A DNA stretch of 64,000 nucleotides. Source: a bacterium. GTDB taxonomy: Bacteria; Patescibacteriota; Minisyncoccia; Phycocordibacterales; Phycocordibacteraceae. The stretch is from assembly GCA_037200965.1 (NCBI GenBank), contig JBBCGK010000001.1:800001-864000 (forward strand). The letters are read 5' to 3'. Numbering within the stretch: position 1 is the stretch's first letter; each line of letters opens with the position of its first letter. This document shows positions 24,283 to 30,529 of this stretch, piece after piece. A model generated the notes under the pieces. That model was not told the DNA's origin, ran no database searches, and saw nothing but the letters and a program-made list of their open reading frames with translations. The position numbers and the translations under genes were made by a program.

Positions 24283-24984
24283 ATGCAAAAGAACATTCTC
24301 ATCACCGGCAGGCCAGGGAGCGGGAAGTCGACGCTCCTGCGGAAACTAATCGGTCGTATTCCGGCAAAGGAAGGGTTTGTCACGAACGAAATCCTTGGCG
24401 AACACGGGCGGCTAGGTTTTGAGGTAGAAACCCGTTCCGGAAGCAAGGCGGTCTTGGCGCACATCAATTTCAACACCCCGCGCAAGGTTTCCAAGTATTT
24501 CGTCGATATCGGCAGCCTCGAGTCGATGCTTCCCGCAGTTTCCGACTTCAAGGACGGCGGTATCCTTTATCTAGACGAGATCGGGCAGATGCAGCTTTTT
24601 TCGGAACGCTTCAAAGATCTGGTCTTGCGGTACCTGGACGCCCGGAATACCTGTATCGCTACCCTTTCCTCTGTATTCGAGGATGGCTTTACAGATGCCA
24701 TCAGGAAGCGGGACGACATAGTCCTGGTCGAGATTTCGGCAGCAAACAGGGAAGAGCAGGAGGTGTTTATAACTCAGCTTCTGAAGAAGATCGAAAAAGC
24801 GAGAAAGTACAGTTCCGAACCCGAGCGGTTCACCCGCACGGAATCGGGAATAGAACTGCACTCGGAGCATGGCACGAGAACGCTGGTTCATACGGAAGGA
24901 AAGTGGCACTGCGATTGCGAATTCTTCAAACGATACGGGATCTGCAGCCATGCTATAGCTGCCGGGGAATTTGCTAGGATGTAG
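24283..24984 (+). CDS. THEP1-like P-loop NTPase fused to a C-terminal SWIM-type zinc finger
   Basis: Walker A ITGRPGSGKSTLL, Walker B ILYLDEIG, C-terminal WHCDCEFFKRYGICSHAIA (CxCx(n)CxH). Confidence 0.6.
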   Translation: MQKNILITGRPGSGKSTLLRKLIGRIPAKEGFVTNEILGEHGRLGFEVETRSGSKAVLAHINFNTPRKVSKYFVDIGSLESMLPAVSDFKDGGILYLDEIGQMQLFSERFKDLVLRYLDARNTCIATLSSVFEDGFTDAIRKRDDIVLVEISAANREEQEVFITQLLKKIEKARKYSSEPERFTRTESGIELHSEHGTRTLVHTEGKWHCDCEFFKRYGICSHAIAAGEFARM

Positions 24985-24986
24985 TC

Positions 24987-25442
24987 ATGGACGCGCTCAA
25001 AAAGTTCTTGAAATCACAACGCCTTTTAGCTCTCGCCGTGCACGGTGAAAATGGACCATGGATAGCTAACGTCTATTTTGGCAGCGACGATGTGAACCGC
25101 CTCTACTTCATAAGTTCCGACACCAACATCCACAGTCTGATGATCCTGAAGGATCCGCGTGTGGCGTTCTCGACGGCATGGTTCGATCCCACAAACCACG
25201 GGGATCGAAAAGGGGTACAAGGGAAGGGTGTCTGCCGTCCGGCGAAAAACGACGAAGAAATCGCTGTGGGCGTCCGGTTGCATAACGAGAATTTCCCTGA
25301 GTTTAAGAAGAAAGTTACGACAGACTGGATCCGCACGAACGCAGGGGGCTCCACGGTCTGGGTGGTCGAGCCGAGCTATATGAAATACTGGGATGATGCG
25401 GTGTATGGAGACGACGAAAGCGAGGAATTCGCTATCGGCTAG
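24987..25442 (+). CDS. Pyridoxamine 5'-phosphate oxidase-like FMN-binding split-barrel protein
   Basis: About 150 aa with a general-stress-protein-26-like pattern; first gene of a tightly packed operon. Confidence 0.55.
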   Translation: MDALKKFLKSQRLLALAVHGENGPWIANVYFGSDDVNRLYFISSDTNIHSLMILKDPRVAFSTAWFDPTNHGDRKGVQGKGVCRPAKNDEEIAVGVRLHNENFPEFKKKVTTDWIRTNAGGSTVWVVEPSYMKYWDDAVYGDDESEEFAIG

Positions 25443-25452
25443 TACATAACGG

Positions 25453-26046
25453 ATGGAAACCGAAATAGAAGCCAAGTTCGCGGACATACATACTGAAACG
25501 CTTCGCGCCAGGCTCAAGGAGATCGGCGCGGTTCTTGAATACCCCGAAACGCTGATGCGGCGCAGGAATTTCGACTATCCCGACGGCCGTCTTAATACGA
25601 TCGGCGGGTGGATCCGCATCCGGGATGAGGGGAACAAAGTCACCTTAAGCTATAAGCAGCTTAACGACCGGACGCTCCACGGAACGAAGGAGGTGTCGGT
25701 GGACGTAAGCGATTTTGACAAGGCCGCGGATTTCCTGACTTCGATCGGGCTCGAGGCGAAATCCTATCAAGAGACGAAACGGGAGAAATGGATGTATCAA
25801 GACATGGAAATCACCATCGATACCTGGCCCTGGATTCCGCCGTTCATGGAGCTTGAAGGATCGAGCGAAGAAGCGCTTAAAGATGCCGCAGCCGCACTTG
25901 GTCTCGACTGGTCCCGCGCCATGCACGGAAGCGTTGAGACGGTATATCAGATGCACTACGATTTCCCCGAATCGGAAATCGATGCGTGGGGAAGCATCAC
26001 GTTCGTCCCGGAGCCGGACTGGCTCCTTACACGGAAGAAGGCATAG
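25453..26046 (+). CDS. CYTH-domain protein (class IV adenylyl cyclase / triphosphate tunnel metalloenzyme)
   Basis: N-terminal EIEAKF signature (ExExK) with downstream acidic/basic tunnel residues. Confidence 0.7.
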   Translation: METEIEAKFADIHTETLRARLKEIGAVLEYPETLMRRRNFDYPDGRLNTIGGWIRIRDEGNKVTLSYKQLNDRTLHGTKEVSVDVSDFDKAADFLTSIGLEAKSYQETKREKWMYQDMEITIDTWPWIPPFMELEGSSEEALKDAAAALGLDWSRAMHGSVETVYQMHYDFPESEIDAWGSITFVPEPDWLLTRKKA

Positions 26047-26062: not shown

Positions 26063-26503
26063 ATGATCTATCTTGAGCGGCCGGAAGATTTCAATCCGAA
26101 ATTCGAGATCGGGAGCTGTTTTCTTAAGCGGGACGGAAAGTTCCTCCTGCTGTTGCGGCAGGATCATAAGCCGGAAGGGAATACCTGGGGCGTCCCGGCA
26201 GGGAAGATAGATGCGGGAGAGACTCCTGCGCAGGCCACAGCGAGAGAAATGGCGGAAGAAACGGGATACTCGGCAGCCCCGAAAGACCTGCGGTTTTTCA
26301 GGACAGGATATTCCCGCTTTCCCGAGTACGACTTTATCTATCACATGTTCTTCTTGAATCTGGCACGTGATCACGAAGTAGTGATTGACCCAGCTTCGCA
26401 CAAGGATTTCAGATGGGTAACCCCTGCGGAAGCGTTTGCGATGCCGCTTATCGGGGATCTCGAGGACTATATCAAGCTGTTTTACGAAGCTGATACACTT
26501 TAA
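26063..26503 (+). CDS. NUDIX hydrolase
   Basis: Nudix box GKIDAGETPAQATAREMAEETG. Confidence 0.75.
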   Translation: MIYLERPEDFNPKFEIGSCFLKRDGKFLLLLRQDHKPEGNTWGVPAGKIDAGETPAQATAREMAEETGYSAAPKDLRFFRTGYSRFPEYDFIYHMFFLNLARDHEVVIDPASHKDFRWVTPAEAFAMPLIGDLEDYIKLFYEADTL

Positions 26504-26505
26504 GG

Positions 26506-27024
26506 ATGCTCGGAGTAAAGCGAGGGACGGTAGTATTGGTTCCGCATAATCCGGAGTGGCCCCCGCTGTTCGATAAAGAGAAAAAACTACTTCTTGAAGC
26601 ATTCGGAGACAGAATAAAAGCCATAGAGCATATCGGAAGCACCGCGATTCCCGGTATGCCCGCAAAGCCGATCATAGATATCAATGTGGCCGTCAAATCG
26701 CTTGATGATATCGGTGATTTCATCCAGATACTTCCCGGGCTTGGATATGAATATATTCCGGAGAGACGTTTTGCTGACCGTCAGTTCTTTCCCAAGGGTC
26801 CGCCGGAATATAGAACCCATCATTTGAATCTCGTGGAAATAACCAGCAAGACCGGATGGATGAATGCTCTTGCATTCCGGAACTATCTGCGGAAGAATTC
26901 TTTAGCTAGGGAAGAATATCGGAAACTGAAGGAATCGTTGGCAGACCAGTATGCTGATAATCGTGAGGAGTATACCGAGCGCAAGAGCGCCTTCGTACAT
27001 GAAATACTGAAGAAAGCCCAGTGA
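26506..27024 (+). CDS. GrpB/UPF0157 family protein (nucleotidyltransferase-fold)
   Basis: VLVPHNPEWP...IEHIGSTAIPGMPAKPIIDINV typical of GrpB. Confidence 0.7.
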   Translation: MLGVKRGTVVLVPHNPEWPPLFDKEKKLLLEAFGDRIKAIEHIGSTAIPGMPAKPIIDINVAVKSLDDIGDFIQILPGLGYEYIPERRFADRQFFPKGPPEYRTHHLNLVEITSKTGWMNALAFRNYLRKNSLAREEYRKLKESLADQYADNREEYTERKSAFVHEILKKAQ

Positions 27025-27096: not shown

Positions 27097-27534
27097 ATGG
27101 CGCGGACGAGCACCTATCTCAATTTCACGAACAAGAGCGAAGAGGCGTTTACTTTCTATAAATCAGTCTTCGGCGGCGAATTCACGGGAGGCATACACCG
27201 GATGGGCGATGTCCCGCCGCAGGAAGGCGTCCCGGCGCTTGCGGAGGCCGATAGGAATCTCGTAATGCATATCGAGCTCTCGATACTCGGCGGGCACGTT
27301 CTCATGGGAACCGATGCACCGGAATCGATGGGCTTCAAGCTCGTCGAGGGCAATAACGTGCACGTCAATCTCGAGCCGGATACGAAAGAAGAAGCCGAGC
27401 GACTTTTCACGGCCCTTTCGGAAGGAGGGAAAGTATCGATGCCGCTCCAAATGATGTTCTGGGGCGCGTACTTCGGGTCGTTCTCCGACAAGTACGGAAT
27501 CAACTGGATGGTGAACTATAGCTCAAAGGATTAG
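27097..27534 (+). CDS. VOC/glyoxalase-fold protein (PhnB-like)
   Basis: About 145 aa with YLNF...AFTFYKSVFGG and a C-terminal WMVN pattern typical of PhnB/3-demethylubiquinone-MT-like VOC proteins. Confidence 0.6.
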   Translation: MARTSTYLNFTNKSEEAFTFYKSVFGGEFTGGIHRMGDVPPQEGVPALAEADRNLVMHIELSILGGHVLMGTDAPESMGFKLVEGNNVHVNLEPDTKEEAERLFTALSEGGKVSMPLQMMFWGAYFGSFSDKYGINWMVNYSSKD

Positions 27535-27538
27535 CCCC

Positions 27539-28285
27539 ATGGCCAAGCCGACAACGAATGAGTTTTTCGATCTCAATAAATTTCCGAAGGAGCCTGGCAT
27601 CGTGTATTTCGCGCTCTCGATGCCGCTTCTGAATAACACTCAGAGCCCGCAGAACTGCTACGGCGCGGACGAGCACCTCATATCCAAGATTCAGGTCTCG
27701 AATGTCGGGGCGCAGGTCGTCTATACCGACAGCTTGTATCTCTACAGCGGCGAGCCCGCGATGGAACTGAAGCTCAAGCATCAGAAGCTTATCGAAGAGC
27801 ACAAGCAGGGATGGCTCAACCTCATCAAGAAGAATATTTATATCGTCCCGAGCGGCTTTACTTTCATGACCTGGAGCCAGCTTCTCCTCGACTGCCCGAA
27901 GTTCTCCTCGTACCTTGTCGAATTCCGCCGCATCTTTGAAAATGATGCGCAGCTCCGCGGGTATGTCACGCTCGATATCCAAGGAACCGGAAGGGAAGTG
28001 AATGAATACAGTATCGGCTACATGCTCGAAGAAATACTGACGGATTACCTGGTCGCCAAGGGCCACATGCGTCTCCAGAACGATTACACCAAGGACAAGG
28101 AGCAGTGGATACTCAACTGCTACCACGGAAAACCCCATCGCTCCCATATCTATCTGCACCAGCGGAATTTCTTTAAGCTCGACAATGCGAAGAACGTATA
28201 CCAGAACGCGTGGTATGACCTGGTGGCCAAAAAGCTCTACGAATTCGACCGGCTCGATATTGATACGTTCGACTTCGGGAAGTGA
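27539..28285 (+). CDS. Candidate cyclodipeptide synthase (CDPS)-family protein, NYH-like variant; function provisional
   Basis: 248 aa. Early Ser in ALSMPLLNN, Y161-x3-E165 (GYMLEE), and NCYH (Y195-H196) resembling AlbC LCYH (Y202-H203). Has a paralog at 41487-42221. Confidence is for the family assignment; the gene call itself is strong. Confidence 0.45.
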   Translation: MAKPTTNEFFDLNKFPKEPGIVYFALSMPLLNNTQSPQNCYGADEHLISKIQVSNVGAQVVYTDSLYLYSGEPAMELKLKHQKLIEEHKQGWLNLIKKNIYIVPSGFTFMTWSQLLLDCPKFSSYLVEFRRIFENDAQLRGYVTLDIQGTGREVNEYSIGYMLEEILTDYLVAKGHMRLQNDYTKDKEQWILNCYHGKPHRSHIYLHQRNFFKLDNAKNVYQNAWYDLVAKKLYEFDRLDIDTFDFGK

Positions 28286-28333
28286 GATACTCACCTCATT
28301 GCCTCTTCATTGGCATTTGATATACTAGCCTCG

Positions 28334-28385
28334 TGCCTGTGGGGCGTCAGCCCTATTTCGGCTAATACATAAGCCGAAGGCAGGC
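28334..28385 (+). ncRNA. Structured intergenic RNA element (closing helix enclosing two hairpins); nature unknown
   Basis: TGCCTG...CAGGCA closing helix around GGGC-gtca-GCCC and TTCGGCT-aatacata-AGCCGAA hairpins. Preceded by a candidate sigma70 promoter TTGCCT-16 nt-TATACT at about 28292-28319. Confidence 0.25.
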
Positions 28386-28386
28386 A

Positions 28387-28421
28387 TAGCAAAAATACCG
28401 ACATCAAGTCGGTATTTTTGC
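28387..28421 (+). terminator. Perfect 15-bp stem-loop, likely bidirectional terminator/attenuator
   Basis: AGCAAAAATACCGAC-atcaa-GTCGGTATTTTTGCT followed by ATTT. Confidence 0.45.
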
Positions 28422-28492
28422 TATTTAGTCCGCCTCCGGATCGACTTTCATCGTGCTGAAGAGTTTCATGTCGCGGTATTTGTTCGTCTCCC

Positions 28493-29341
28493 TTGGATGG
28501 CGCATACTACGAGGGAATGAAAACGAAACCCGACGGGCGCGAACTCAAGGGGTGGCGGCTTACGCTGCACCGCGTCATCTTCGAGTCGGATACGCCCGCC
28601 GGACGTTTCTTCGACACGGCGCTCCTGTGGATCATCGTGCTTTCGGTGCTCGTCGTAGTGCTCGACAGCGTCGAATCGTTCCACGCCCCGTTCGGTGCGT
28701 TCTTCCGTTATGCGGAATGGACGTTCACCATCCTCTTTACTATCGAGTACGTGCTTCGCCTTGTCTCGGTGCGCCGCCCCGCGCTCTATGCTACGAGCTT
28801 CTTCGGCATCATCGACCTCCTGGCGATCGTTCCGGCCTATGCCGCGGTACTTATCCCGGGCTTCCAGGCGGCCATGATTCTCCGCGTATTCCGGCTTTTG
28901 AGGGTCTTCCGGATACTGAAGCTCGCGCGGTTCGTCGTCGAGGGCGATACCCTGATGCAGGCGCTTCGCGCGAGCAAGGAGAAGATCGCCATTTTCATTC
29001 TCTTCGTCGCCTTTTCCGTTATATCGATGGGAAGCCTTATGTATCTCGTCGAAGGCCCCGAGCACGGGTTCACGAATATTCCCACGGGCATCTATTGGGC
29101 CATTGTGACGCTTTCGACCGTGGGCTTCGGCGATATAACGCCCGAGACCCCGCTTGGCCAGGCGATCGCGAGCTTCGTGATGCTTCTTGGCTACGGATTT
29201 ATCGCGGTGCCGACCGGGATCGTAACGTCGGAAATGGCGCGGGCAAAACACGGGGTCAACCGGCACGCGTGCGACGACTGCGGGAACACCGCTAATGATC
29301 CCGATGCGAGGTTCTGCAAGGTCTGCGGCGGAGCCTTATAG
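28493..29341 (+). CDS. Voltage-gated-like potassium channel (6TM, S4 Arg ladder, TVGFGD filter) with C-terminal zinc ribbon
   Basis: S4 RVFRLLRVFRILKLAR, selectivity filter TLSTVGFGDITP, C-terminal CDDCG...CKVCGG. TTG at 28493 or ATG at 28517. Confidence 0.75.
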   Translation: MDGAYYEGMKTKPDGRELKGWRLTLHRVIFESDTPAGRFFDTALLWIIVLSVLVVVLDSVESFHAPFGAFFRYAEWTFTILFTIEYVLRLVSVRRPALYATSFFGIIDLLAIVPAYAAVLIPGFQAAMILRVFRLLRVFRILKLARFVVEGDTLMQALRASKEKIAIFILFVAFSVISMGSLMYLVEGPEHGFTNIPTGIYWAIVTLSTVGFGDITPETPLGQAIASFVMLLGYGFIAVPTGIVTSEMARAKHGVNRHACDDCGNTANDPDARFCKVCGGAL

Positions 29342-29430: not shown

Positions 29431-30039
29431 ATGAGACTGTACTACTCCCCGGGCGCCTGCTCTCTTTCCCCGCATATCGTCGCCCGCGAAGCGGGGCTTC
29501 CGGTCGAACTTGATAAAGTCGATTTTAACGACGGACGGAAAACCGAGGACGGCTCGACGCTCGGGGAGGTGAACCCGAAGGGATATATCCCCGCACTGCG
29601 GCTCGATGACGGTCCGGTCCTTACCGAAGGAGTGGCGATCGTCCAGTACCTCGCCGATCAGGCGCCCGAAAAGAAGCTCATGCCGGAGCGGGGAACCACG
29701 GACTACTATCGCGCGCTCGAATGGCTTACGTTTATAAGCTCGGAGCTCCACAAGGGCTTCAGCCCCCTCTATAACCCCGCGATCGCGGAAGATGCGAAGA
29801 AAGCGGCAATTGAGAAAATCGGGAAGCGCGTAAGCTACGTGGAAGGAATGCTCGCGGGGAAGCAGTACCTTCTCGGAGACTCCTTCATGATTCCCGATGC
29901 CTATCTCTATACGATTCTGCGCTGGGCAAAGCGCTTCGAGATCGACCTGTCGGTATATCCGAACGTTACGGCGTTCATGGAACGGATGAGGGCGCGCCCG
30001 GGAGTTTCCGCGGCGCTTGCGGAAGAGGGCCTCGAATAA
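29431..30039 (+). CDS. Glutathione S-transferase (beta/GstA-like)
   Basis: N-terminal [15 protein letters not shown] thioredoxin-like domain and a C-terminal helical domain. Confidence 0.8.
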
Positions 30040-30040
30040 C

Positions 30041-30529
30041 ATGCAGAAAATCACCCCCTTTCTCTGGTTTAACGATACGGCGGAAGAGGCCGCGAACTTC
30101 TACGTATCCGTATTCAAGAACTCGAAGCTCGGCCGTATTGCCCGCTATCAGGGGAAGGAAGCGGAGCAAGTCTCGGGACGGCCGGAAGGTTCGGTGATGA
30201 CGGTCGGGTTCGAACTTGACGGTCAGGCGTTCACGGCGCTCAACGGCGGCCCCTTTTTCAAGTTTACGGAAGCGATCTCGTTCGTCGTGAACTGCGAAGG
30301 GCAGGAGGAGGTGGACGAGTTCTGGGACAAGCTCTCGGAAGGCGGGGAGAAGGGCCGGTGCGGATGGCTTAAGGATAAGTTCGGCGTATCCTGGCAGATC
30401 GTTCCTGTGGCGCTTGCGAGGCTCATGAGCGATCCTGATCCGGAGAAGTCAAAGCACGTAACGGCGGCGATGCTCCGGATGACCAAGCTCGACGTAGCGA
30501 CGCTTGAAGCGGCGTACGAAGAGGGATAA
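30041..30529 (+). CDS. VOC/PhnB-like protein
   Basis: [23 protein letters not shown]-terminus typical of PhnB-like VOC proteins; second copy of this fold in the window. Confidence 0.6.

Follow-up and report, generated by a model that had tools for sequence, protein, structure and literature searches.

The window examined here is a 64,000-nucleotide stretch of the bacterial contig JBBCGK010000001.1 (Patescibacteriota), and the element of interest within it is a small gene, here called CDPS-like, whose product is probably a tRNA-dependent cyclodipeptide synthase (CDPS). The gene and the features around it are collected in Table 1. Its start codon lies 4 nt after the stop of the preceding VOC gene, at 27534, and three motifs can be read directly in the protein, namely ALS27MPLLNN, GY161MLE164E165 and NCY195H196. 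An antisense open reading frame (ORF) of 264 aa (27500-28294, minus strand) overlaps the whole gene and exceeds its length, so that a naive longest-ORF caller would select the wrong strand at this place; it is regarded as a shadow ORF because the homology and fold evidence lies entirely on the plus strand.

Table 1. Features of the CDPS-like gene and its surroundings (positions in the window)
Feature	Position	Strand	Basis or remark
NTPase_1	24283-24984	+	Pfam E 4.8e-31
PNPOx-like (PNPOx_N)	24987-25442	+	Pfam E 2e-6
CYTH	25453-26046	+	Pfam E 5e-12
NUDIX	26069-26503	+	Pfam E 1.7e-19
GrpB	26506-27024	+	Pfam E 8.7e-48
PhnB-like VOC	27097-27534	+	Pfam E 3e-8
Shine-Dalgarno-like AAGGA	27526..27530	+	8 nt 5' of the ATG, read from sequence
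CDPS-like gene	27539..28285	+	248 aa, ATG start, product so far labelled hypothetical protein
S27 codon, predicted acyl-enzyme nucleophile (AlbC S37, Rgry S29)	27617..27619	+	C-terminal end of model strand 20-26 (strand 1)
Y161-M-L-E164-E165 codons, [Y/F]-x-L-E-E motif on helix 156-173	28019..28033	+	Equivalent to AlbC Y178...E182 and Rgry Y181-F-L-E-E185
Residues 174-189, family-specific insertion and loop between catalytic helix and Tyr strand	28058..28105	+	Spacing; HMMER gaps in 5mlp
Y195-H196-G197-K198-P199 codons, putative catalytic/cyclisation Tyr and Y-[P/H]-G-K signature	28121..28135	+	Equivalent to AlbC Y202-H203 and Rgry Y202-P-G-K
Perfect 17-bp hairpin, U-rich 3' side	28386..28424	+	RNA fold; ~100 nt past the stop

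Family member P0001 shares 100% identity with the window protein, whose 90%-identity cluster-mate P0346 corresponds to NCBI MEJ0054012.1, "MAG: hypothetical protein [bacterium]". The window protein has homologues in 76 clusters at 39-100% identity, all of them called hypothetical and devoid of Pfam domains, and an exhaustive profile search enlarged the family to 223 clusters when grouped at 50% identity; the gene is therefore more than a chance ORF. One member, P0077 (525 aa), carries the CDPS-like domain at residues 282-524, behind an N-terminal extension of about 280 residues that has no annotation apart from a faint winged helix-turn-helix hint (E 0.049).

Searches with the single sequence or with close homologues returned little. 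The window protein has no match in Pfam (PF16715 included, at E up to 1), NCBIfam, PHROGs or PADLOC, and a phmmer search of the PDB gave no useful match. With the close-homologue profile A1, hmmsearch of the PDB yielded chance matches only, such as a dCTP deaminase at E 0.06, and hhalign against four NYH-type CDPSs gave a probability of 1%. The broader profile A4, made from 86 family sequences and searched against all PDB sequences, has the CDPS of Rickettsiella grylli (Rgry-CDPS, 5mlp_A) as its top match, at E 1.1e-5 and over almost the full length, followed by Fdum-CDPS (5ocd_A) at E 0.009, and its significant matches are CDPSs only. Aligned by hhalign with 15 Rgry-type CDPSs, A4 reaches a probability of 96.8% (E 2.7e-10, 187 columns), and Q-S and T-D-x-L motifs are common to both groups. 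Against 112 NYH-type CDPSs, a diverse profile of the family obtains E 8.4e-5 and a probability of 60%, with residues 54-145 as the aligned core.

The AlphaFold2 model of the window protein adopts the compact Rossmann fold specific to CDPSs, which resembles that of class-I aminoacyl-tRNA synthetases (aaRSs), and in both structure searches with this model CDPSs rank above every aaRS. The distances can be judged by calibration with an Rgry-type profile, which finds Cglo-CDPS in the PDB at 1.5e-37, Fdum-CDPS at 1.4e-15, Nbra-CDPS at 9e-11 and BcmA at 1.6e-6, and does not detect the NYH CDPSs AlbC, YvmC and Rv2275. The gap between the present family and Rgry-CDPS therefore resembles those between accepted XYP clades and is smaller than the gap between XYP and NYH types. 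An earlier interpretation of this DNA, made without database searches (the sequence-only reading), had proposed a deep-branching CDPS and named the fold and PF16715 as the points to check. The relationship and the fold stand; the divergence lies within the normal range of the family, and the affinity is to XYP-type rather than to AlbC or other NYH-type enzymes. PF16715 itself fails to match the window protein; the decisive match is that of the family profile A4 to Rgry-CDPS.

Little should be read into the absence of PF16715, given that Rgry-CDPS, a validated enzyme, itself scores 17.9 bits against the gathering threshold of 27 bits. Homologues of PDB 5MLP (P0347-P0361) obtain 17.9-19 bits or no match at all. 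The Pfam profile thus misses part of the XYP subfamily.

Residue conservation was counted in 136 family members (134 at the position of S27). E165 and Y195, the latter ending model strand 190-195, are invariant (136 of 136 each), S27 is a serine in 133 of 134 sequences and E164 a glutamate in 134. Position 161 is occupied by tyrosine in 66 members and by phenylalanine in 69, so a hydroxyl at this point is not kept throughout the family. Position 196 holds proline (62), histidine (52) or asparagine (8), and G197 is retained in 125 sequences. Some further residues, Q35, Y62, L66, Y67, H88 and Y226, are conserved in at least 90% of members, and the N-terminal motif N-x-F-x-D-x-N-x-x-P is both conserved and specific to the family.

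These columns fall on the catalytic positions of known enzymes. In the HMMER alignment of A4 with 5mlp_A, l-S-m pairs with G-I-S-M, n-F-i-L-E-E with N-Y-F-L-E-E and i-c-Y-p-G-k with I-T-Y-P-G-K, and, after correction of a one-residue offset in chain numbering, the aligned residues are S29, Y181, E185 and Y202 of Rgry-CDPS. The register obtained by hhalign with Rgry-type CDPSs is identical, and the DYLIEE of Fdum-CDPS pairs with the E-E motif. An ungapped profile-profile scan places I-G-Y-M-L-E-E-I-L best at L-N-Y178-V-L-A-E182-A-P of AlbC (equalled by 14 of 500 column shuffles) and the Y195 segment best at AlbC Y202 (a score reached by 25 of 500). For the Ser segment taken singly the scan gives no significance, as 259 of 500 shuffles reach its score, and this match is not relied on by itself. 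A different register, in which Y170 and K174 would occupy the places of AlbC Y178 and E182, came from the maximum-accuracy (MAC) alignment of hhalign with NYH sequences only; it was rejected, as both residues are variable among the members and E165 is invariant, and was dropped because the ungapped scan, HMMER and hhalign to XYP CDPSs all favour Y161 and E165. What the data show directly is the fold, the homology, and both the conservation and the register of the four catalytic residues.

The sequence-only reading had assigned S27, Y161, E165 and Y195 to the CDPS catalytic set within the same ORF and had quoted the same motifs; the ORF and motifs are present, and the register shared by HMMER and hhalign shows that the four assignments were correct. 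The loss of G35 that it had noted is seen as well, A25 standing at this AlbC position, and so are its two insertions, of 2 residues after the Ser and of 10-13 before the Y-H pair. The second is evident from the spacing between E165 and Y195, which is 30 residues, in comparison with 20 in 111 of 112 NYH CDPSs and 17 in Rgry-CDPS. The inserted segment 174-189 faces gaps in 5mlp and is modelled with high predicted confidence (pLDDT 95-96). Its comparison of NCYH with the LCYH of AlbC held in part: Y195-H196 is present and Y195 aligns with Y202, while the affinities point away from the NYH type.

By sequence and by structure, the nearest relatives are XYP-type CDPSs and not AlbC/NYH-type ones, and the subfamily signatures are mixed. 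Most genome-derived members carry Y-P-G-K-P and the window subclade Y-[H/P/Q]-G-K-P-H, so the Y-P that defines XYP enzymes at the equivalents of AlbC 202-203 is replaced in the window protein by Y195-H196. Of the NYH signature, the Y-H pair is found, and the candidate for N40, N32, is an asparagine in only 40 of 136 members; an N40 equivalent is not assignable because of the 2-residue insertion after S27. In XYP enzymes the tRNA acceptor stem is bound by two basic motifs, K-phi-X-F on strand beta2 and L(R/K)FKK on strand beta7 (PMC7566563). The C-terminal hairpin of the window protein (..A-K-K-L-Y..) falls outside the region aligned by hhalign. A review of January 2026 recognises only the NYH and XYP subfamilies, and our literature searches on CDPS-like families in bacteria of the candidate phyla radiation (CPR) or in DPANN archaea gave nothing relevant and no paper on the present clade. 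The clade is new and unannotated, and it belongs to a known kind of enzyme.

By homology to AlbC and Rgry-CDPS, whose mechanism is established (PMC7566563), Ser27 would take the aminoacyl group from a first aminoacyl-tRNA to form an acyl-enzyme, with Tyr161 and Glu165 anchoring the bound amino acid. Glu165 would then act as the base for the attack of the second aminoacyl-tRNA, giving a dipeptidyl-enzyme, and Tyr195 would promote the intramolecular cyclisation that releases a diketopiperazine. That aminoacyl-tRNAs are the substrates, that the chemistry is of the ping-pong type and that a cyclodipeptide results are all expected by analogy. When the AlbC pocket positions (PMC5816076) are transferred through the motif anchors, the predicted candidates are Y23, A25, T168, D169 and N193 for pocket P1, and G197, P199 and H200 for pocket P2. 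These columns differ by clade as the catalytic ones stay fixed: in the window subclade the predicted pocket is polar, with D169, N193 and H200, whereas the majority clade has the hydrophobic residues F169, W/F193 and L200 there, which suggests that the two clades use different pairs of amino acids.

Among 76 species-level genomes that carry a relative, about 34 belong to CPR/Patescibacteria, about 19 to DPANN archaea, about 4 to other or unclassified archaea, about 8 to unclassified bacteria and about 11 to other phyla; the counts are approximate, being taken from record titles, and some labels of metagenome-assembled genomes (MAGs) may be unreliable. In the Paceibacterota MAG DASZOX01 the family is represented by two paralogues, each on a contig of its own (L047, L065).

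Taken together, these data lead us to conclude, with a probability of about 0.6, that the gene encodes a tRNA-dependent CDPS whose clade, so far without annotation, falls on the XYP side of this family, a conclusion that draws on sequence profiles and on a predicted model. Several observations weigh against it. Identity to solved CDPSs is only 10-17%, with TM-scores of 0.48-0.65, and PF16715 matches a single one of 86 members, at 20.2 bits and below its cut-off. The tRNA-binding K-A-K-F of Rgry-CDPS aligns by hhalign with T-N-E-F in the window protein, a pairing that retains the Phe but not the Lys. About 60 residues, the 174-189 insertion and the N-terminal N-x-F-x-D-x-N among them, have no CDPS counterpart, and tailoring genes (cyclodipeptide oxidase, P450, methyl- or prenyl-transferases), which usually though not by definition accompany CDPS genes, were not found nearby. 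Finally, the family is unusually conserved for a CDPS clade and occurs in reduced genomes, and could have a different and more constrained role.

Neighbourhoods were compared at about 75 loci with 7-kb flanks, all ORFs being clustered, and no universal partner gene or conserved operon was found among them. Some associations do recur. Among 81 immediate neighbours assigned with Pfam, the most frequent are GNAT (6), FAD-linked oxidase (5) and SET (3), and after them come aldolase (3) and a few pairs. By clustering, GNAT genes overlap the start of the CDPS-like gene in 8 DPANN loci; at L016, L018, L021, L023 and L030, a GNAT gene for some 145-155 aa lies directly upstream and abuts or overlaps the start (+2 to -31 nt), so that the two genes may be coupled in translation in these Nano-, Woese- and Pacearchaeota. 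SET-domain genes lie directly downstream in 3-5 loci, and two members (P0122, P0126) have a C-terminal SET fusion, which looks like a Rosetta-stone-type link. At L019, L032, L049, L053 and L062, from several CPR and one Pacearchaeota, a SET gene for about 155 aa is found within about 1.5 kb, often 2-4 nt away or overlapping. All SET- and GNAT-linked members fall in the clade with the hydrophobic pocket and not in the window clade. A lysine-containing product, considered on account of the acidic D169 and of the SET and GNAT partners, was rejected because every SET- or GNAT-linked member carries F169 and not D169. In another arrangement (L038, L050, L064, L067, L070), a FAD-linked oxidase of about 560 aa (FAD_binding_4 and FAD-oxidase_C) lies directly downstream and a fructose-bisphosphate aldolase gene often upstream, across Nomurabacteria, Saccharibacteria and Paceibacterota.

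These partners bear on the main alternative, in which the protein would be an aminoacyl-tRNA-dependent transferase, using the same Ser acyl-enzyme chemistry to acylate another acceptor (an amine, a small molecule or a protein) or to release a linear product. The fold and the catalytic residues would be explained equally well, and a conservation far above that of typical CDPS clades, reaching to the extra residues kept in 90% of members or more, would fit it, as would the insertion beside the active-site strand, the fused, downstream or overlapping genes for the amine-modifying SET and GNAT enzymes, and the lack of a classic tailoring context. However, a non-cycliser would not obviously need the cyclisation residue Y195, which no member lacks, though this Tyr also serves earlier steps; the SET and GNAT links concern only about 15 of the 75 or so loci; and such enzymes are equally conceivable as tailors of a cyclodipeptide. 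We consider this alternative unlikely. A broader proposal is more doubtful still, namely that the family is a conserved cross-domain enzyme of episymbiotic CPR and DPANN rather than an ordinary CDPS of secondary metabolism, drawing on aminoacyl-tRNAs (host-derived or its own) to make a fixed diketopiperazine host signal or to acylate another acceptor, partly together with fused or translationally coupled SET or GNAT amine-modifying partners.

The genes that precede the CDPS-like gene in the window all lie on the plus strand, with gaps of 2-72 nt, and Pfam bears out the tightly packed PNPOx, CYTH, NUDIX, GrpB and VOC run described by the sequence-only reading. It also adds NTPase_1, only 2 nt upstream of the PNPOx gene, as the first gene of the run; its product is a THEP1-like P-loop NTPase with a weak C-terminal match to a SWIM zinc finger (E 0.003). 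The strong stem-loop reported at the end of the run is real: the 155-nt region 28286-28440 folds at -64.2 kcal/mol (z = -7.3, with none of 200 shuffles as stable) and includes the 17-bp hairpin, which was missed by a simple terminator scan and detected by RNA folding, and is the likely intrinsic terminator of the run. Between the stop codon and this hairpin, positions 28328-28385 form a branched and strongly structured RNA-like element, for which a small RNA, a regulatory element and simply compound terminators are all conceivable; an Rfam scan of the window gave one tRNA only and no family in this structured region. Beyond it, 28493-29341 encodes a voltage-gated-type ion channel (Ion_trans, E 1e-30) with a short zinc-ribbon-like C-terminal tail (C-x2-C...C-x2-C; weak DZR and Zn-ribbon matches), and the N-terminus encoded at 30017-30529, judged by eye, suggests a second PhnB-like VOC protein a few genes downstream of the first.

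On a view that follows the pathway suggested by the sequence-only reading, the gene would perform the final step in a CYTH-NUDIX-GrpB-VOC(-PNPOx) operon dedicated to producing or processing an undescribed nucleotide- or aminoacyl-linked small molecule. The close same-strand packing, down to the 4 nt before the CDPS-like start, the single strong hairpin after the run and a GC content of 0.49-0.56 over 24.5-28.7 kb, slightly under the 0.58-0.62 found downstream, are compatible with such an operon. The comparison of loci makes it very improbable: beside homologues, NUDIX and VOC genes recur at one locus each and CYTH, GrpB and PNPOx genes at none, at L008-L011, the loci of relatives at 68-73% identity, the neighbours are altogether different, those at three more loci with precomputed Pfam annotation differ completely, and compact genomes normally contain long same-strand series of small genes that have nothing to do with one another. 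Because the window neighbours do not recur beside homologues, the proposed pathway is left unsupported; the same reading was right that this is not a classic CDPS-plus-tailoring cluster, none of the neighbouring genes being conserved with the CDPS-like gene. Judged by spacing alone, the gene is probably co-transcribed with small-enzyme genes unrelated to it, through genome compaction and not within a biosynthetic cluster, and its surroundings are no guide to its product. It is hardly credible, lastly, that the protein shares only a class-I aaRS/HUP-type Rossmann scaffold and has a function unrelated to aminoacyl-tRNA, for example by binding nucleotides, catalysing an ATP-dependent ligation or acting in a non-catalytic way, given that CDPSs precede every aaRS in the structure searches and alone give significant PDB sequence matches, that the ATP-binding motifs HIGH and KMSKS are absent, and that the family-invariant residues are exactly the CDPS catalytic set.

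Current annotation overlooks this clade altogether, its members all being labelled hypothetical and matching neither Pfam nor NCBIfam, and tools based on the Pfam CDPS profile are expected to miss them as well. If the CDPS assignment is right, the CDPS family gains at least 220 sequence clusters, counted at 50% identity, and reaches into both CPR bacteria and DPANN archaea. The clade would also supply new pocket variants for the enzymatic synthesis of diketopiperazines, polar in the window subclade and hydrophobic in the majority. CPR and DPANN organisms are usually viewed as host-dependent and as having little biosynthetic capacity, so that a conserved enzyme in them with aminoacyl-tRNAs as its source may matter for the chemistry between symbiont and host.

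The closest known systems are the XYP enzymes Rgry-CDPS (Rickettsiella grylli, PDB 5MLP) and Fdum-CDPS (5OCD), at about 15% identity. In comparison with them, the window protein has Y-H in place of Y-P and, as aligned by hhalign, lacks the Lys of the basic K-phi-X-F motif, and its family carries 13 extra residues from the E-E motif to the Tyr strand, is alone in having the N-terminal N-x-F-x-D-x-N-x-x-P motif and is found mostly in CPR and DPANN genomes. The NYH CDPSs AlbC (3OQV/4Q24), Rv2275 (2X9Q) and YvmC (3OQH) show a much weaker profile similarity to the family, with the Y/E helix out of register, and differ from the window protein at A25 (their G35), by the 2 extra residues after its Ser and by their shorter E-to-Y spacing (20 as against 30). 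The only characterised CDPS from CPR or DPANN that we found, ParcuCDPS of Parcubacteria bacterium RAAC4_OD1_1 (PDB 7QAU/7QB8), is unrelated to the present clade and lies outside the window family, at 12% identity and undetected by the family profile at E up to 10. The catalytic domains of the class Ic aaRSs TyrRS and TrpRS are twice the size of the window protein, which has neither their HIGH and KMSKS motifs nor an anticodon-binding domain, and its conserved residues are those of the CDPSs and not those of the class Ic aaRSs.
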